A stretch of DNA of 64,000 bases from Savitreella phatthalungensis (Eukaryota), in contig AP039712.1 in the NCBI GenBank assembly GCA_051599415.1, positions 124,001 to 188,000 on the forward strand. The letters run 5' to 3'. Below the pieces are notes generated by a model. The model did no database searches, was not told the origin of the DNA, and saw only the letters and a program-made list of their open reading frames with translations. Both the position numbers and the translations under genes were made by a program. The stretch's first letter is position 1; each line of letters starts with the position of its first letter. Positions 3,144-64,000 of this stretch are shown here, piece by piece.

Positions 3144-3874
3144 ACTTATGGGAATCAGCACACTCTCTCGCGGGGAAGAACTCAACATTCAACCTCGTGT
3201 GCTCTGTCAGGCTGACATGCTGGACCTCGGATGACAATTGAGGTCTCTGCAGCAGGCTCGCAGGCGACGTCACCAAAGAAATAAGTAACGGAAGATTGTG
3301 TCGTTGTCCAATCCCCTGGCCTCCACCGAAGACGCTGTTGCTGATCATCGTGTCGTTCGATCGATGTATCAAAGACGAGCGTGCGCTTCACTATGGAAGA
3401 TCGAGTTGGATAACTATGACGCATCTCTGTTGGTTTTTATCTGAATGACGCATGTAGTTCAAGAAAATGTCATGTCATTGTATCCATTCACCCTCGCCAA
3501 ACATATTTAGTTTGTGTCTGTGCCGGTTTCTTGTGTCTGAGGAAGTGCAATGTGGGTATATGAGTGTCAAGGACATGTTTAATGTACACCGTGTCCTTGA
3601 CGTTCGCTCGCTCGCTCACTCGGGAAATATTTTAGCTCCGACTTGAGTTATTGATTGGTTGAATAAATCTGAATCATCGATGCACGATCGATGGTGCGAC
3701 TTTCCTAATTCAGTAACTGACATCACCACCTGTACCAGGGCGACACAAAACCCTCACATCTTCAAAGCCTGCCTATTCACAGTACCAGCAAGCAGCCCTT
3801 TTGCCTCGCTGAAGGAGTCACAAGTCATTCTCCAGGTCTAGTCTTCCAGTGATTGGTCACATTGCTCAGGGAGG

Positions 3875-22054: not shown

Positions 22055-22763
22055 CAACTAATCAATTCGATACATATCTATGCATCTCGATCAATTGTGC
22101 GAGGGTGTCTGCCATGCTCAATTAAAGCGGTACATAGATATCAGTGTCAACAGCATGCACACGCACCCACATGGCCAAAGCGGAATTTCGGCCCTTGTAC
22201 AAGATCAAAAATCCATTCTATCTTTTTCCTTCCTTAGAAACCTGATCTGACGCTGAATAGATTGTATAGTTTATACTCTGTTGTACACATGATCATAAGC
22301 AGAACGATTCTTTACAGTGTCACAAGCAACAACTGGACCTGGCAGCCGCCAAAAGCCCGAAAGGCCCGACAATCCCCGCCTCCACAATCCTTTGCCCCGG
22401 TCCAACTCTCTACACCGGTCAGAGCCAGAGACCCTCACCATTACGCACCACTCACTCATCCACTCACTCACTCACGCACACACTCAGGCGCCAGGAAGGT
22501 AGACCGACAGAGTACCAGAGGGTGTGTCTGTCTGTCACCGTCACTCACCGACCAGGGTTCGGTCAGACACACTCACAGACACACACAGACACACACAGAC
22601 ACACGGAATCTTCCACAGGCAACACAACCACAGACCCATCATCATCCATCGTTCGTTCCGAACAACTTCACAATCGTCCTGGAAGACGCACACACAGACA
22701 CACCCTTTCTAAGACAACCCTTACCCTCTCCACATCTCTCTTTCGTTTCTCTTCATTCAAACC

Positions 22764-32384: not shown

Positions 32385-32975
32385 TTAAAGCTGCTCCTTG
32401 AAGTCGTAGACGAGGACGACGACCTTGTTGACCTTTGGTGAGTTGAACTTGTTGATTCTAGTCCATCGTCGTTCCTTTGTGCCGTTGACGTCGACGAGGG
32501 TGACGCCGGTTGTGAGGAATGCCCTCCAGTTTGTCTTGTTTCCAGCAGATGCGTCTGCCCAAGACTCGATCAGCACAATCTTGCCGTTCTCATCCACGGT
32601 CTCCTCGAGCACGAGCGAGTCGACGAGCGCAGGGTCGATCTGTCTAGCCTCGTCCGGAGTGACAAGTCTAGCGCGGGTGATCATGTCACCGTAGATGTCG
32701 TGCTTGTCCTTGTGCTCCTGGTCGTCCACGTAGATGTGCTCCTTTGCTCCAGGGATCGAGCCGAGGAACGAAGCAGACACAATCTCCAGGTTGCCGCTGG
32801 CGTTCTTAGAAACACGGTTCTCAATCGACACGGTACCGTAAGAGATAGCCTTCCGCTTCAGCATGCCTACACCCTGAGCAGACAGGACATCCTCGTATGG
32901 CGTAGACAACTTCGCGTTCATCGTCATCTTCGCAGACAGGCCGTTGGCCGAGTTGATCGAGGCTGGCAGAGACAT
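32385..32975 (-). CDS. Conserved fungal protein, lipocalin/FABP-like beta-barrel
   Basis: N-terminal pattern LS.KMTMNAKLS..YEDVLSAQGVGMLKRKA resembles the FABP/lipocalin start; beta-strand pattern; ends LVYDF. Confidence 0.65.
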   Translation of the reverse strand: MSLPASINSANGLSAKMTMNAKLSTPYEDVLSAQGVGMLKRKAISYGTVSIENRVSKNASGNLEIVSASFLGSIPGAKEHIYVDDQEHKDKHDIYGDMITRARLVTPDEARQIDPALVDSLVLEETVDENGKIVLIESWADASAGNKTNWRAFLTTGVTLVDVNGTKERRWTRINKFNSPKVNKVVVLVYDFKEQL

Positions 32976-33219
32976 GGTTTTTGTTGTAGTTGTAAAAGAT
33001 ATCGAGAAAGAATAGGTATAGAAGGATGCAGATTGGTTTGACGGGAGAGGGATCGACGGTCTCTTATATTGTCACAGGTTTCGACGTGTCACGTCACGGA
33101 TCCGAGGGCCGCCGACGTGGGGGTCTAGTGCGTGTGGGTGTGGGTGTAGGAAGGTAGACGTGTCTGTGTCGGTAGGTGTGTCAGAGTGAGTGGTCGGGTG
33201 ATTGAGTGGTATGTGACCT

Positions 33220-34155
33220 CACACCAGCGTAACCGTCTGGACCGCTGGCATTCGGCCTGGCAAAGCTTGGGTCGGGGTGGGCTAAGGCCCCCGTGTGTCT
33301 CCGCCCTGCGAAACTCGCGGAGACTTTTCGCCCACTGTACAGCCAAAAGGTGTTGTCACGGTGGATCACACTTAGGCGGTGCTCACTTAGAGTGCGGCGC
33401 GGCGCAGCGCAGCGCATTGGCACGATAGTACCAGGATTCAGGAGCCGCAGATACTGTTGGAGGGTAATGATCCCCCGAGCTCACTGGAGTCTGGGAGATT
33501 TTCCATTCCTGCTTCCTAGTCTGGATGCGGGTGACGGGACAAGGTATGCAACGTGGATCTGCCAGCAGTCTATACGGTAGTGGTGGGTAAGTCGGAATGG
33601 TAATTTCAGTCTAGACACTGTGAGAAGCCTAACGAGGTCTTCTTTCTGAATGCGAGTGAGAGAGTGGACAAGCGAGTCTGATGACAGTCGACCGGGAGGA
33701 TTTTCCTTAGGACGACGTAGATCCTGCCCCGCTTTAGAGGCGAAGGGCAAAAGGCTTCGAGCAGTCTTTGACTATCCCTTGATTTTGGTAAATGGAAACA
33801 CGGCTGGCTGTAAGTTGCCATTGGGAAGGATGCTCTGGGGACCTATGATGGTGATTGGGCTATCGGGGCCGTCGGCCTTAGTATCTGTGAAGGATTGTAC
33901 GTGTTCTCTCGGCAGTCAAAGGTTGCGCATGAAGCGGGGCAGCACTCCGAACCCTCTGGTGATTGCACTCTGGCCTCCAAGCTCTGCACTCTGGCCTAGC
34001 TGTAGAACTTTTAAAGTTAGTTAGGGTTAGGGTTTGGGTGTGGCGCAGTATCGATCAAATTCCAGTGAGACTGATAAATTTCAGCCACTGATTGATTGAT
34101 TCACCTTTTCCAGCTTGGTACATTGCCAAGCACCCCAAATTTCACGTGCGCCAAG
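33220..34155 (-). ncRNA. Candidate structured long ncRNA, possibly telomerase RNA
   Basis: TATATA at 34187-34192; template-like AACCCUAACCCUAAC at 34034-34020; multiple inverted repeats; intron-like signals at the 3' end; no convincing ORF. Boundaries are inferred. Confidence 0.35.
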
Positions 34156-34337
34156 CAGAATGACCCGTCATCCTCTGCCACCCAAGTATATACGCGCCTG
34201 TCCATCCTGTAGACATACTTCAATGCGTATGTTTCCGTCCATCGCCAAGAACGCAACCGCCTTACCGTCTCATAGTCCGCATTTCGTCTTGGCAGCGTAA
34301 CGTATGATCTTCCATTCTGTTGTATTCTGCTGCATGA

Positions 34338-39768: not shown

Positions 39769-40443
39769 CTAGTCTTTGAACTTGCGGGTCTGCGACTCGC
39801 CAAACAGGGCAGCTCGGACGAGTGGGAGTGCATCAGTCTCGAGGATCAGGAGACGACCTTCGAGCGTGTTGTCGCAACGGATGGTACCCTTGTTGGCCTT
39901 GACGATGACACCGCCAGCGGATTTCTCCGGCAGGGGTGAGTCCTCGTCAATGGAGACGTCTGCATCGATGCCAGACTTGTCCTTGAACGACTTCTTCGCC
40001 GACTCGATCGCCTTTTTCACAACGTCGTAGTCATTCTCACGCGCAGAGACGGTGACTTTCTTGCCCATGATCTTCAGAAGACCCTGAAGGATGAGTCTTG
40101 AGAGGAGATCCTCGTACGACTTTGCATCCTTTGAGATCTCTGCCAAAGACTTTCGCGCCTGCTCGAAGATGTCGTCGACAGCTGCCTGGCGCGCCTGCAG
40201 AACCTTCAGTCGCTGCTTGTTCAGGACTGTGGACCTAGCAATCTGCTGTGACATACCAGCTTTCTTGATCCGAGCCTCGTGCTGCTCATCTACTTTCGAC
40301 TGTTCTTGACGAACAAGCTTTGCCTTTTCGATTGCAAATTCCTCGTCTGCCTTGATGTGGATCTCCTTGCTCTTCTCGAGGGCCTCTTGCTTGATGAAGG
40401 CCACCATCTTGCGCATCTCTCCTTGTACTTGCGCGTCGTTCAT
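39769..40443 (-). CDS. VMA4: V-ATPase V1 subunit E
   Basis: KMVAFIKQEALEK..EI.IKADEEFAIEK, NKQRLKVL.AR, GGV, DNTLE.RL, TRKFKD. A short upstream exon is possible. Confidence 0.96.
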   Translation of the reverse strand: MNDAQVQGEMRKMVAFIKQEALEKSKEIHIKADEEFAIEKAKLVRQEQSKVDEQHEARIKKAGMSQQIARSTVLNKQRLKVLQARQAAVDDIFEQARKSLAEISKDAKSYEDLLSRLILQGLLKIMGKKVTVSARENDYDVVKKAIESAKKSFKDKSGIDADVSIDEDSPLPEKSAGGVIVKANKGTIRCDNTLEGRLLILETDALPLVRAALFGESQTRKFKD

Positions 40444-40987
40444 GGTCGGAAGCTGGCCGTGGAAATGCGAAGCAGATTAGGGTTCCTGTAGCAAGATCAA
40501 TACAGATGTCGGTAATATGAAGCTGCCTAGTTCCAGAGACTAGCTATCTGAGTGTGAATGATGGCTAGATGAAGAGATCTGAGGATGATATGTTGGCCCG
40601 GTGATGCTGTGTATAGTAGTAGATGTGGGTTTGTGACATGGACGTCACTGCCGACTCACCAGCCACACACCACGTGTATACACGTGCAACTCATTTTTTG
40701 ACTCAGCCACGATCATGAAAGATGATCAGTAGATCTGTGCGTGCGACCGACTACCCATCATATTCCTCTTCAAGGTACTAAATAATGTAGAAACCTGGAT
40801 GGATTTCCTAGTGATTATTAGATTATCACAATTTCACGTCAGATCCACGGATTAGATCCCTTTAATCCTTGCATCTACCAAATAGTGTTCACTCCATACA
40901 GTCTCTCTTTCATTCTCTCTGTGTCTCTCTGTAGGTCTGTACTGTGTACTGTGTGTACTCTACGCAGCCGCTTAGGCTACGCTACGG

Positions 40988-41150
40988 CACACACACACAC
41001 ACACAGTCAGTCAGCCAGTGAGCAACTGACTGACTGACTGAGTGAGTCAGTGAGTCAGTGAGTGAGCAAGTGAATGACCAGGCGGGTGACTGAATGATTG
41101 ACTGAGCCAGTGAGCAACTGACTCAGGGAGTGACTGACTGACTGAGTAAC
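40988..41150. repeat. (CA)n plus TGAC/TGAG tetranucleotide low-complexity tract
   Basis: cacacacacacacacagtcagtcag...actgactgactgactgagtgagtcagtgagtcag; agccagtgagcaactgact occurs twice. Confidence 0.85.
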
Positions 41151-61980: not shown

Positions 61981-62844
61981 CTACAACCTCGGTCTACCAA
62001 AGGTGGCTTGCATGCTGATCTGCGCGGACGTCGGCGGTCCTGGAGCTTTGTACCTTGTGTGATCCTTACTTGAGTTTGGGCCGTCTGCTTGGCGATAGTA
62101 CATGTTGTAGAGATACCCTGAATCCTTGGGGTCGAGACCCTGTGGGATTGCTATGCCACGAGGCCATCCGGTGGCCTGCTTGATTGTGTTCCATGGTTTC
62201 GCGAGAGAAGTCTCACGGACAAGTCGATCGCCAGCCGTACTCTTCGCAGGAGGTGAGCCCTCGCGCACCTCCACGTGAACACACTGCACGTACATCTGCA
62301 CGCCCCTGCCCCCGTTGCGCGACCACATCACCTCAGCCTCATGCAGCGCAGGCAACTCCGTCCTCAGTACCGCTCCGCCCAACGGCATCTCCTTTGGAAT
62401 CTGCACATTTAGGTATCCTCGTCCGCGAATCAATCTATCACTCTCCCACCCTTCCGACGCCGACCACTTGCCACTGTACAGCTTGGTGAACCCAGTGGCG
62501 CGGTCGACGGCCGGCGTGGGCTTGGTGGTGTCGGCCGGTGCTCCGTAGATGAGGATGACGCCTGCGTGTGAGGGCGCGACGATGTCGTCTTCCGGCCTAT
62601 CGTGCTTGAACTGGAAGGTGAGCGTGGACCCACGGTACACGGGCACGAATGTCGGGTCCACGGATGCAGTCCGGCCGCACTCGAGGTCAGACGACGTGAA
62701 GTCCACTGTCGGACCATTGTCGCGAAGCACAGACATTGCTCGGCCAGCCCCAGCAGTCACACCGTCCACGAAAAACTGGTGCAGCGACATGTGCGCCCAC
62801 ACGCCACACGCCAGAGGCGCTACCATCGCCAGCGTGATAAGCAT
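61981..62844 (-). CDS. AA9 (GH61) lytic polysaccharide monooxygenase
   Basis: Signal ...VWA|H (N-terminal His of the brace), DLECG, PSHAG, LRTELPALHEA, GVQMYVQCVHV, YKAPGP. Confidence 0.88.
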   Translation of the reverse strand: MLITLAMVAPLACGVWAHMSLHQFFVDGVTAGAGRAMSVLRDNGPTVDFTSSDLECGRTASVDPTFVPVYRGSTLTFQFKHDRPEDDIVAPSHAGVILIYGAPADTTKPTPAVDRATGFTKLYSGKWSASEGWESDRLIRGRGYLNVQIPKEMPLGGAVLRTELPALHEAEVMWSRNGGRGVQMYVQCVHVEVREGSPPAKSTAGDRLVRETSLAKPWNTIKQATGWPRGIAIPQGLDPKDSGYLYNMYYRQADGPNSSKDHTRYKAPGPPTSAQISMQATFGRPRL

Positions 62845-63016
62845 GCTCGAGTCCTGTCAAGCGGCATCGTGGGAGCGAGGAGACATGCGCACTTTTATGG
62901 CTGACGGGTAGAGGCGGACATGGGTAACAGACGGCGTTTCACTTGTCAAAAGGTGAAGTTGGCGTTTTGTGATGAATTGGAGGCGATGACGCGTGTGTAC
63001 AGTAAATGATCGATGA

Positions 63017-64000
63017 CTACGAGCTCTTTCTCGGCCTCAATTTCTTGCACTTCCGCAGAAACTGCTTCGGAGACGACGTCATCGTCGGCACTGGTATCGG
63101 TGTCGGTGTCGGTGTCGGGATTTGCACCGGAATTTTGATCGGTAGACTCGACTGTGCAGGCGCACTCAACGCCGAAGACGAGCTAGCTATAGATGTCTTT
63201 GCAAGCGTCGATGCATCTGCCTTAGCCACGATAATTGGCGTCGTGACTGCGATAATCGGGGACAATGATGCTATCGGCGTGGTCGCCGCTGGTGATGATC
63301 CAGCAGCCGATAGCCTTGCCGGCGGCGATGCTTCCGTCTTGGATGTGACGACCGGGGTCGTGGCTGCAGCAATTGGAATGGACGACGACGGTGTGGCATG
63401 CATTGACGTGTTCGAGGTTGCTGTGCCCGGCGTATCACCTACACCTGCATCGACTGCCTTCATGGGTGGCGTGTTGGTGCCATTTGGTGGACCCCACGTC
63501 ACATCGACAGCGCAGTTCGCGTTCACTGCAGGGCCTGGAGCTCTGAAGTCGGTCCAATCGGACTTCTCGTTGTGGTATAGATCGTAGTGGTATCCTGGAT
63601 CCTCGTCCGAAAGATCTTGTGGGAAGTTAATGCCTTTTGTGAGAGCAATCCTATTGCCGCCACTAGACGCGCCCGCTGTTGCTGTAGTAGCAGCAGCTTT
63701 GGCAAAGTTGTCGGTCGCCCCGAAGGTTAGGTCGGTCTGCAGTGGACCATCGACCCTGACAGGAGAAGGCTCGTCCCCCATTACTGAGAGTTGCGTGCAC
63801 TGTATGTACAGTTGAACGCCAGAGCCCGTGAGTCGGAAGATCCTGTCGGCCTCGTGCATGGCCGTCAATTCAGTCCGGAAGATGTAGTTGCCGTCCGGGA
63901 GTGTGTCCGGCACACGCCAATTGACGATCCCTGAGTTATTCCTCAGCTTGTAGTTGTCCCAACCCTCGACTCCACCAGCCTTGTCGTAGTGGCCATGGTG
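63017..64000 (-). CDS. Second AA9 LPMO with an S/T/P/A-rich extension and a basic tail (5' end outside the window)
   Basis: Frame is open to the window end; LPDGNYIFRTELTAMHEA, GVQLYIQCTQL, FRAPGPAV; tail KQFLRKCKKLRPRKSS. Confidence 0.85.
   Translation of the reverse strand, partial: HHGHYDKAGGVEGWDNYKLRNNSGIVNWRVPDTLPDGNYIFRTELTAMHEADRIFRLTGSGVQLYIQCTQLSVMGDEPSPVRVDGPLQTDLTFGATDNFAKAAATTATAGASSGGNRIALTKGINFPQDLSDEDPGYHYDLYHNEKSDWTDFRAPGPAVNANCAVDVTWGPPNGTNTPPMKAVDAGVGDTPGTATSNTSMHATPSSSIPIAAATTPVVTSKTEASPPARLSAAGSSPAATTPIASLSPIIAVTTPIIVAKADASTLAKTSIASSSSALSAPAQSSLPIKIPVQIPTPTPTPIPVPTMTSSPKQFLRKCKKLRPRKSS

Follow-up and report, generated by a model that had tools for sequence, protein, structure and literature searches.

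A telomere-repeat motif in a non-coding gap: a possible telomerase RNA gene of a Taphrinomycotina-like fungus

Telomerase RNAs (TERs) evolve so fast that every additional class of fungi has called for a discovery of its own, while the TERs of early-branching ascomycetes had linked the RNA cores of yeasts and vertebrates. For Taphrina, Protomyces and their relatives no report of a telomerase RNA was found in the available portions of the literature. The window considered here, that is the whole 64,000-nucleotide stretch of DNA that was analysed, is Taphrinomycotina-like, its V-ATPase E protein being 70% identical to that of Taphrina deformans, 67% to that of Protomyces and at most 59% to those of Pezizomycotina, and TTAGGG telomeres have been reported in Taphrina, Pneumocystis and Saitoella (PMC7857110, available part). 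Between a cyclophilin gene and a gene for a 196-aa protein lies a gap of 1.36 kb which holds, on its minus strand, a motif of telomere-type repeats. The question that this locus raises is whether a Taphrinomycotina-like fungus has its telomerase RNA gene in this gap, from 34190 to 33160 on the minus strand, with an RNA product of ~0.9-1.0 kb. The answer proposed here is a tentative yes, held at somewhat less than even confidence: the gap is a reasonable but unproven TER candidate, and could equally be a telomere-repeat promoter element.

The template-like motif was established by direct reading and motif counts. As the preliminary description of this DNA had stated, AACCCTAACCCTAAC is present at 34034-34020 of the minus strand. 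The count of this sequence in the 64 kb is one; as a candidate template (34020..34034, minus strand) it would read AACCCUAACCCUAAC, amounting to 2.5 telomere repeats. The sequence CCCTAACCCTAA has one match in the window and none in any of 100 shuffles, TTAGGG is found 5 times in the window where 10.4 occurrences are expected, and exact matches to AACCCTAAC are absent from the remainder of the window. Degenerate repeats flank the motif, with CCACAC CCAAAC on its 5' side and UAAC on its 3' side. Reported templates comprise ~1.5 repeats (9 nt in N. crassa, 11 nt in A. fumigatus), and by its sequence a run of 2.5 repeats with degenerate flanks is unlike these and looks more like a short interstitial telomere array. 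Read on the plus strand, the motif is AGGGTTAGGGTTT, the core of the HisBox/Teb1 site of S. pombe. In the ensemble fold of the minus strand the motif is paired to about one half, and this restricted accessibility of the template counts against a TER. A repeat search also detected a direct repeat adjoining the telomere-like motif, TGCACTCTGGCCT, in two copies 21 nt apart (33964..33997), and no further copies with up to 2 mismatches were present in the window.

The surroundings of the motif are non-coding. The upstream neighbour is a cyclophilin gene as had been proposed (Pfam PF00160), while the description of the other neighbour as lipocalin-like did not hold, the 196-aa protein having no Pfam family at E up to 5. 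A protein-coding gene within the gap was ruled out, given that no sustained codon signal is present, that no ORF exceeds 124 aa and that the 124-aa ORF on the plus strand has no match among 1.84 billion representatives. Likewise, no tRNA genes were found in the 64-kb window. A spacer of 1.36 kb devoid of function would be generous, because tandem intergenic distances in the window are as short as 166-226 nt. An Aspergillus-type TER synteny (TIP49, Zpr1) was considered and discarded; it is absent from the window, where cyclophilin is the sole gene in common, and cyclophilins are many. Metagenome scans were also performed at both neighbours. With the alignment of the 196-aa protein, 173 pattern matches were obtained and none was confirmed, so that no relative emerged; with a cyclophilin exon, 562 relatives were obtained, of which the best 80 were kept. 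No close relative is present among these best 80 of 562 matches, since the highest full-length identity among them is only 65%, and none of these 80 loci contains CCCTAACCCTAA.

On the 5' side of the motif, TATATA was read directly at 34192-34187 of the minus strand (34187..34192), where it had been placed before. It would represent either a TATA box ~155 nt 5' of the template-like motif or an element for the 3' end of the cyclophilin mRNA, the latter option arising from its position 146 nt past the stop codon at 34340-34338. Between TATATA and the motif, a hairpin-rich segment (34045..34150) consists of Watson-Crick inverted repeats present on both strands, namely a long imperfect hairpin at ~34049-34101 and a hairpin at 34113-34131. 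Compared with shuffles, this segment reaches a fold z of -5.30 on the plus strand (0/300), with 32 pairs of which only 2 are G-U, and of -1.04 on the minus strand (51/300). Two stems proposed here recur in the minus-strand ensemble fold of 34180-33223: stem 34090/34063 does so with p 0.8-1.0, and stem 34131/34113 is present (p 0.77) with 6 bp instead of the 8 described. The register suggested for a template boundary element, 34139-34/34033-38, was not recovered (p 0.01). A template-boundary helix could have UUGGGGU (34132..34138, minus strand) as its 5' strand; in the ensemble fold its partner is not the sequence 5' of the template but one of the template repeats, either the first CCCUAA repeat at 34033-27 (p ~0.47) or the second at 34026-21 (p ~0.27). 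The fold of 34145-34015 reaches z -3.41 on the minus strand (0/200 shuffles) and z -2.65 on the plus strand.

On the 3' side of the motif, inverted repeats and folds outline a three-way junction domain (33724..33942, minus strand) formed by helix A, helix B and a 3' hairpin. Helix A (33942-32/33734-24, minus strand) corresponds to a previously described inverted repeat of 11 bp, 33724-34/33932-42, in which all 11 positions match and whose pair 33942/33724 has p ~1.0. Helix B (33926-14/33773-61, minus strand) matches at 11 of 13 positions and bears an apical part of ~140 nt; the nested 8-bp core reported earlier, 33766-73/33914-21, lies within it (33761-73/33914-26) and was reproduced by the fold (33921/33766, p ~1.0). 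Perfect 11-bp inverted repeats with a perfect 8-bp repeat nested inside occur twice in 64 kb, against 0.05 per 64 kb in shuffles, and the second of the two, at 41004, is low-complexity DNA. The junction fold, 33942-33724, is better on the minus strand (z -1.95, 4/200 shuffles) than on the plus strand (z -0.93). A MITE-like element was rejected as the origin of 33724-33942, as its arms are not collinear (5 versus 26 nt between the helices) and it is without a second copy in the window.

The 3' hairpin of this junction, CGAAG-CCUUUUGCC-CUUCG (33741..33759, minus strand), stands at the place of P6.1 in a CR4/5-type junction. The pattern AAGC N0-1 UUUU GC N0-2 UU matches once in 128 kb, at this hairpin (33759-41), and in none of 100 shuffles, but it was written post hoc, when both this hairpin and that of S. 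pombe had already been seen; for S. pombe, the hairpin AAGC-UUUU-GCUU was identified by eye in the sequence that PMC13058752 prints and with the help of the description given in PMC3592445. In S. pombe the junction is functional even when relocated beside the template-boundary helix (PMC13058752). In the hairpin 33759-41 the loop measures 9 nt, or there is a 1x2 internal loop, as against 4 bp and 4-5 nt in P6.1. The base before it is U, whereas an adenosine is reported to be invariant before the P6.1 hairpin in the available part of PMC4993307. The caveat of the preliminary description that no canonical P6.1 could be identified was upheld: the strict form, a 4-bp stem with a NUNGN loop, is absent from the minus strand of 33070-34200, its background being 1.26 per kb per strand. 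A relaxed scan for P6/P6.1 returned 2 sites versus 2.9 in shuffles, which is chance level. Another P6.1 motif type is AGAG..CUCU, and no hairpin of this type was found.

Further towards the 3' end, the stem described at 33600/33503 is present in the minus ensemble fold (p 0.94). As for the branched domain proposed beyond it, the inner stem 33324/33297 persisted (p 0.73) and the outer stem 33335/33277 reached only p 0.26. The same region can form a second, compact three-way junction (33268..33334, minus strand), composed of an outer helix, an 8-bp hairpin (33324-17/33304-297) and a hairpin with 4 bp and a CUUA loop (33290-33279). Its fold is minus-specific (z -2.36, 4/200 shuffles, versus z -0.58 on the plus strand), and its architecture, in relaxed form, recurs at 7 loci in 128 kb. 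The hairpin CCAGCG...CGCUGG (33224..33248, minus strand; pair 33248/33224, p 0.96), also foreseen, is directly 5' of a 59-nt intron-like unit, GUGAGG...CUGAC...CAG (33164..33222, minus strand). This unit agrees with the earlier proposal as a sequence pattern and is the only match to the intron pattern in the gap; the pattern is matched 13 times in the window, and shuffles contain 0.059 matches per kb per strand. Judged from its sequence, the unit would be a signal for spliceosomal formation of the RNA's 3' end or, alternatively, an intron in the 5' UTR of the next gene. According to the available parts of PMC4299874 and PMC4993307, the TERs of fission yeasts and filamentous fungi generally have their 3' ends formed by the spliceosome. 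No 5' splice site of the form AUA(A/C)GU is present 3' of the motif.

Other hallmarks of TERs were also sought. As had been cautioned, a U-A-U pseudoknot was not apparent: a motif scan of 33070-34200, which is a weak test, revealed no U-rich triple-helix signature of the hTR or yeast type, since this stretch of ~1.1 kb contains only two U4 runs, separated by 400 nt, and lacks paired U tracts with an A tract after them. The caveat on an Sm site was equally justified, no strict AU4-6GR being present, and the sole relaxed Sm-like match, CUUUUGG at 33349, precedes the splice-like site by 127 nt; in the available part of PMC3592445, a canonical Sm site was likewise not found in Pezizomycotina TERs by Qi et al. 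No gathering-level Rfam match was obtained in the 64 kb and no telomerase family appeared when E was relaxed to 10. Taken as a whole, the 958-nt RNA has a fold no better than that of shuffles (z -0.99 on the minus strand, -1.01 on the plus strand).

The telomerase RNA interpretation put forward in the preliminary description is therein borne out in part. What stands is a unique and correctly oriented motif, a non-coding gap, a rare junction 3' of the motif and an intron-like unit; what does not is a canonical P6.1, a pseudoknot signature, a strict Sm site, an Rfam match, AUA(A/C)GU and the predicted boundary register. A length of ~1 kb fits the subphylum, because S. pombe TER1 is 1212 nt long (PMC13058752). 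If the gap is a TER gene, RNA polymerase II would start slightly 3' of TATATA (34192-87), and the hairpin-rich 5' domain would end in the helix 34138-32/34033-27, abutting or overlapping the 5' part of CCCUAACCCUAAC and limiting the extent to which the reverse transcriptase copies. The remaining single-stranded CCCUAAC... would then align with, and serve as template for, TTAGGG repeats, a repeat known for the named relatives. The junction 33942-33724, with its rare nested-helix fold, would offer the U-rich hairpin 33759-41 in the place of P6.1, the TERT-binding element of fission yeast and vertebrates, and the 3' end would be generated by the first splicing step at GUGAGG (33222). Such a gene would make a template, a boundary element and a junction available for testing in this lineage, together with an additional data point on the variability of P6.1 and of its position. 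A more elaborate version of the telomerase RNA reading, which is improbable as a whole, holds that this would be the first TER of the Taphrina/Protomyces side of the Taphrinomycotina, with a junction ~80 nt 3' of the template, an enlarged U-rich P6.1 and possible excision from a cyclophilin read-through transcript. By analogy, such a junction would be a natural counterpart of the relocation alleles of S. pombe, and the RNA may be excised from the upstream read-through transcript in the way that has been described for an mRNA 3' UTR of Ustilago.

The alternative that best survives, a real possibility though one held with a little less confidence than the telomerase RNA gene, is that no TER is made here and that the tandem TTAGGG is a double-Myb site of the Teb1/Tay1/Tbf1 type, or a decayed interstitial array, within a non-coding spacer, where its role would be that of a promoter-proximal element, an insulator or a roadblock. 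The remainder of the gap would then comprise the cyclophilin 3' region and the promoter and 5'-UTR intron (33222-33164) of the 196-aa gene. Plant-type telomere boxes and yeast Tbf1 sites are comparable elements. The caveat raised previously, that TTAGGG pairs are also Tbf1/Teb1 sites, gains support from the identity between the core of the motif and that of the HisBox: compared by eye with the available text of PMC4839565, AGGGTTAGGGTTT is identical to the 17-base S. pombe HisBox, AGGGTTAGGGTT(t/g)tgat, over its first 13 bases. The HisBox and many further promoters are bound by Teb1 (PMC4839565 and PMC5128866, available parts), and Teb1-type proteins are the presumed ancestral TTAGGG binders in the subphylum (PMC12449055). 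In the window, 9-mers resembling AACCCTAAC with at most 1 mismatch are enriched (13 versus 5.9 expected, a number reached by none of 100 shuffles), and 3 of the 11 matches outside the candidate are situated just 5' of ORFs and in the same orientation, gene starts being inferred: one at 3749, before the plus-strand ORF at 3842, one at 22716, where the malate synthase frame starts, and one at 40476, before the V-ATPase E gene. The degenerate repeats on both sides of the array also agree with such a site, as does the failure of the defining TER elements (P6.1, splice site, pseudoknot, Sm site and Rfam). In addition, non-coding runs of at least 1 kb are common, six being detected in the window by a crude scan, and the intron-like unit, 189 nt before the ATG at 32975, fits a 5'-UTR intron. 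On the other hand, the distance from the motif to that ATG, the next on the same strand, is 1,045 nt without coding signal between, as compared with ~100 nt for the three promoter-proximal copies. Furthermore, the rare nested helices of 11 and 8 bp, the unique S. pombe-like hairpin motif and the minus-strand bias of the two junction domains are all left unexplained. A Teb1-type site, if real, would indicate that telomere-repeat boxes act gene-proximally in a member of the subphylum with TTAGGG telomeres, and would be a warning for template-based searches for TERs. As a promoter element, the motif could still have a non-coding transcript as its target.

It is less likely, and on balance doubtful, that the gap specifies another minus-strand non-coding transcript, either a lncRNA or a long structured leader of the 196-aa gene, with no role in telomerase. 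The telomere-box tandem would be promoter-proximal to such an RNA, which would contain the three-way junction and be spliced at 33222-33164. The rare nested helices and minus-biased local folds are accommodated in this manner, as are the telomere-box-like motifs found in sense orientation just 5' of three genes and the fact that no TER core element passes a strict test. [quoted passage not shown] Against this stand the lack of a match to a known RNA family, the unusual length that a leader of ~870 nt would have in so compact a genome, and the likeness of hairpin 33759-41 to S. pombe, which would have to be due to chance.

It is very unlikely that the functional strand is the plus strand, with a hairpin-rich RNA at 33970-34180 (a small-RNA precursor or an antisense RNA) in which the TTAGGG repeats form an arm of a 31-bp hairpin. 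The preliminary description had cautioned that some wobble pairs favour the plus strand, rightly so because, in a sliding scan, the strongest fold signal of the gap is on that strand, with z -5.4 in two overlapping 140-nt windows (33970-34179), while none of 880 background values outside the gap reaches z -5. Similarly, 33950-34190 reaches z -4.08 on the plus strand (0/200 shuffles) versus -1.32 on the minus strand, and the plus-strand hairpin 33973-34044 includes 9 G-U pairs, and of its 31 pairs only 22 are retained when the minus strand is folded in this way. A weak plus-strand match to mir-7615 (24.7 bits, E 0.012-0.033) is the only Rfam match in the gap at E up to 10. When the telomere arm is held fixed, however, the hairpin is ordinary (z -1.15, 65 of 500 shuffles folding as well), and 12 of 426 natural 66-nt segments gain equal energy. 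Part of the plus-strand signal comes from the sticky G/U-rich telomere strand, and what remains (34045-34150) consists of Watson-Crick inverted repeats that both strands possess, the difference in z between strands reflecting the weaker random folds of the G-poor plus strand. Membership in mir-7615 was rejected, the score of 24.7 bits comparing with a gathering score of 90 and the hairpin being accounted for by the fixed-arm shuffles. Finally, a box C/D or H/ACA snoRNA at 34045-34170 was dismissed, as inspection by eye showed no terminal stems or boxes in register and Rfam gave no match there.

Comparison with known systems places these readings side by side. Two tandem TTAGGG units in non-telomeric DNA are shared with the Teb1-bound HisBox or AACCCT-box, with 13 of 17 HisBox bases identical, and the single telomere-box-like 9-mers just upstream of three window genes resemble promoter sites of the Teb1 type. 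Unlike the HisBox, the motif is separated from the next start codon by over 1 kb and from the preceding stop by 300 nt, histone and ribosomal-protein genes are lacking nearby, and the last four HisBox bases differ. With regard to the TERs of Pezizomycotina, those of Neurospora crassa (2049 nt) and Aspergillus (1.6-2.1 kb) are about twice as long as the candidate; they possess a P6.1 with a NUNGN loop, a conserved pseudoknot with U-A.U triples and AUA(A/C)GU behind a pyrimidine-rich tract, none of which was found in the gap, and the Aspergillus order TIP49 - TER - Zpr1 is absent from the window. An ORF-free intergenic location is common to both, and the candidate would further share with them a CCCUAA-containing template for TTAGGG, a putative yeast-type boundary helix close by and spliceosomal 3'-end formation, the latter being suggested in the gap by a sequence pattern. 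Ustilago maydis is a basidiomycete, outside the lineage of the candidate, and ascomycete TERs are reported as independent Pol II transcripts; the TER of Ustilago maydis is cut from the 3' UTR of the Emi1 mRNA (PMC9564094, these statements drawing on the accessible parts of the sources), and the candidate similarly lies directly downstream of a coding gene, that of cyclophilin, on the same strand, with 146 nt from its stop to TATATA. S. pombe TER1 and the TERs of other fission yeasts and of Saitoella complicata belong to the same subphylum as the closest named relatives of the window, and the comparison with S. pombe TER1 was made by eye and with one short pattern, not by alignment. Differences from these TERs include the absence of an AU5-6GR Sm site beside the splice site and of a pseudoknot identifiable by motif scan, a template-like motif of 2.5 perfect TTAGGG-type repeats, a junction ~80 nt past the template and not in the terminal arm, and a hairpin with three extra C (a 9-nt or internal loop) and a U before it. 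In common with fission-yeast TERs, the candidate is of comparable size (~1 kb, versus 1212 nt for S. pombe TER1), its putative template is near the 5' end, behind a helix able to overlap it, and the intron-like unit with canonical GU would be at its 3' end. The three-way junction of these TERs is essential and bears a 3' hairpin with 4 bp in its stem and 4 to 5 nt in its loop, and the hairpin at 33759-41 and the printed S. pombe hairpin have AAGC..UUUU..GC..UU in common.

The locus at 33164..34192, described in preliminary form as a candidate minus-strand telomerase RNA (TER) gene, lies between two minus-strand protein-coding genes of an ascomycete that, judged by protein identity, belongs to Taphrinomycotina. 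As a lineage marker, V-ATPase subunit E (39772-40476, minus strand) shares 70% identity with Taphrina deformans, 67% with Protomyces lactucae-debilis and 56% with Saitoella; among the matches listed, any Pezizomycotina protein reaches at most 59%, and two environmental proteins at 77-78% are the sole closer relatives. This lineage is poorly sampled, and two metagenome scans found no close relative. Despite this placement, the window carries genes of filamentous-fungus type, namely two AA9 LPMOs (61981-64000), a heme-thiolate peroxidase, a multicopper oxidase and an NRPS-like carboxylate reductase. The cyclophilin assignment of the first flanking gene (stop codon 34340-34338, minus strand) is borne out by its match to Pfam PF00160. 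The other, downstream of the candidate (32385-32975, minus strand, ATG at 32975), encodes a 196-aa protein whose label of 'lipocalin-like' could not be upheld, because Pfam assigns it to no family, even with E relaxed to 5, and it has only one relative (63% identity) among 5.8 billion clustered proteins; by these matches it is a lineage-restricted orphan.

The gap between the two genes measures 1,362 nt, and ORF and codon-usage scans gave no coding signal across it: its longest ORF (124 aa) has zero matches among 1.84 billion representatives, codon-usage scores are around zero or negative, with the 196-aa gene scoring 14-29, and the few windows reaching 7-8 are isolated and in differing frames. 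The sequence elements named in the preliminary description are present at the positions given there, including the candidate template, a telomere-repeat-like motif (minus strand, 34034-34020; CCCTAACCCTAA) that occurs once in 64 kb and in 0/100 shuffles, in a window where TTAGGG is rarer than expected (5 vs 10.4). The motif spans 2.5 repeats and is flanked on both sides by degenerate repeats; published accounts of TER templates, as far as available, give ~1.5 repeats. Beside it, within 33964-33997, two exact copies of the 13-nt sequence TGCACTCTGGCCT stand 21 nt apart as a direct repeat, with no third copy in the window; they may be paired protein sites or a small duplication.

In an ensemble fold of the minus-strand RNA 34180-33223 (958 nt), most of the stems proposed earlier were recovered with pair probabilities of 0.73-1.0, the exception being 33335/33277 (0.26), and stem 34113-20/34124-31 formed with 6 pairs rather than 8. 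The proposed template-boundary register had p 0.01; the G-rich UUGGGGU (34138-32) finds its partners within the template repeats themselves (p 0.47 and 0.27). The full 958 nt fold no better than shuffles on either strand (z -0.99 and -1.01). The nested 11-bp/8-bp helices do exceed chance: only two of the 15 perfect inverted repeats of at least 11 bp within 320 nt in the window contain a nested 8-mer, such nested perfect helices arise at 0.05 cases per 64 kb (40 shuffles), and the other case is simple-sequence DNA at 41004. There, 40990-41150 consists of low-complexity (CA)n that gives way to short repeats of the GTCA/GTGA type, the source of several perfect inverted repeats.

Hallmarks of TERs, in the available portions of the literature, include a template, a boundary helix, a pseudoknot triple helix containing 4-5 uridines, a P6/P6.1 junction required for activity (4-bp stem and NUNGN loop; S. 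pombe and Saitoella have a P6.1 loop of 4-5 nt), and a 3' end produced by the first splicing step beside an Sm-like site (PMC3592445, PMC3603654, PMC4299874, PMC4993307). A strict P6.1 scan of the gap's minus strand yielded 0 matches (window background 1.26 per kb per strand), and a relaxed P6 + P6.1 scan gave 2 matches vs 2.9 in shuffles. The AGAG..CUCU motif, one P6.1 type, is absent from the gap, where a motif scan also found no U-rich pseudoknot signature (just two U4 runs) and no strict Sm site; AUA(A/C)GU does not occur 3' of the motif, and an Rfam search returned nothing for the candidate. On the other side of the ledger, a putative intron-like unit (33222-33164, minus strand) exceeds chance expectation, the intron pattern used having 13 matches across the window against a shuffle rate of 0.059 per kb per strand. 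By eye, 33365-33395 (minus strand) holds two CUAAGU copies 18 nt apart, then GUGACAA, CCUUUUGG and UGUACAG, a second, weaker intron-like arrangement by sequence, with C at intron position 1; it also includes the sole Sm-like U run close to the gap's 3' part.

We assumed low prior odds, between about 1 in 20 and 1 in 75, that a random interstitial (CCCTAA)2 is the template. The odds of a TER are raised because the ORF-free gap has room for a ~1 kb RNA, because the junction formed by the nested helices is rare and its hairpin (33759-33741) resembles that of S. pombe, and because an intron-like unit is present and a helix contacts the template; they are lowered because the strict tests failed, the motif has the length noted, and it is identical to an already described protein site. 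A number of the favourable features were set only after inspection of the sequence, and a limited literature search, including the accessible part of PMC7857110, found no TER report for Taphrina, Protomyces or relatives. A telomerase RNA gene is the reading we tentatively prefer, at somewhat below even confidence. It is also quite possible that the tandem motif is a spacer site bound by a Teb1-type protein, or else a decayed interstitial array; the next gene would then have the intron-like unit as an intron in its 5' UTR. According to two reports, the double-Myb protein Teb1 of S. pombe occupies every histone promoter at AGGGTTAGGGTT(t/g)tgat and many further promoters at TTAGGG motifs (PMC4839565, PMC5128866); the motif equals the first 13 of the 17 bases of that site. 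Moreover, AACCCTAAC-like 9-mers (at most one mismatch) are enriched in the window (13 vs 5.9, no shuffle reaching 13), and outside the candidate there are 11 copies, of which 3, each with one mismatch, stand directly upstream of ORFs in the same orientation, namely those of the carboxylate reductase (3749-3757, plus), malate synthase (22716-22724, plus) and V-ATPase E (40476-40484, minus), which suggests a gene-proximal promoter element. Because of this enrichment and placement, telomere-box-type promoter elements probably exist in the Savitreella phatthalungensis genome. However, the distance from the motif to the next ATG is 1,045 nt, and a binding site would leave both the rare nested helices and the S. 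pombe-like hairpin without explanation.

Some other minus-strand non-coding transcript from the gap is an unlikely alternative. In a local fold scan (140-nt windows; 880 background values outside the gap, of which 16 were <=-2.6, one <=-4 and none <=-5), the minus strand reached z -2.6 in 2/19 gap windows. The plus strand reached -5.4 twice, at 33970-34179, and local fold energy in the gap exceeds chance. A plus-strand 31-bp hairpin at 33973-34044 includes 9 G-U pairs and is ordinary once its G/U-rich telomere arm is fixed (z -1.15; 65/500 shuffles as good). The adjoining 34045-34150, located 190-290 nt after the cyclophilin stop codon, contains Watson-Crick inverted repeats on both strands (a long imperfect hairpin and the hairpin GCTTGGTACATTGCCAAGC) and, with 33970-34044, gives the lowest plus-strand fold z of the window (-5.3 to -5.4); it could be a 3'-end/termination element or a protein-binding palindrome. 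Since the hairpin is ordinary with its arm fixed and the remaining repeats lie on both strands, the signal is real DNA symmetry and a poor argument for a plus-strand RNA, a very improbable product of this locus.

In the proposed telomerase RNA gene, minus-strand folding of the nested helices gives a three-way junction of helix A (33942-32/33734-24, 11 bp), helix B (33926-14/33773-61, bearing a 140-nt apical part) and a 3' hairpin (33759-33741, CGAAG-CCUUUUGCC-CUUCG), with a domain z of -1.95 (4/200 shuffles) and -0.93 on the plus strand. A second, compact junction (33334-33268, minus strand), with an 8-bp hairpin and a 4-bp hairpin of loop CUUA, is minus-biased (z -2.36 vs -0.58 on plus), its relaxed architecture being found at 7 loci in 128 kb. 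Hairpin 33759-33741 takes the position that P6.1 has within a CR4/5-type junction. In the S. pombe junction (nt 1029-1090), the available text gives P6.1 as 4 bp with a loop of 4-5 nt (PMC3592445), and the hairpin, read by eye from the printed Micro-TER1 sequence, is AAGC-UUUU-GCUU (PMC13058752). The pattern AAGC N0-1 TTTT GC N0-2 TT, common to this hairpin and the junction hairpin of S. pombe TER1 and composed after both hairpin sequences had been seen, has one match in 128 kb (both strands), at 33759-33741, and none in 100 shuffles. When three inserted bases of any kind are roughly allowed for, the figure becomes ~0.02 across the 950 nt lying 3' of the motif.
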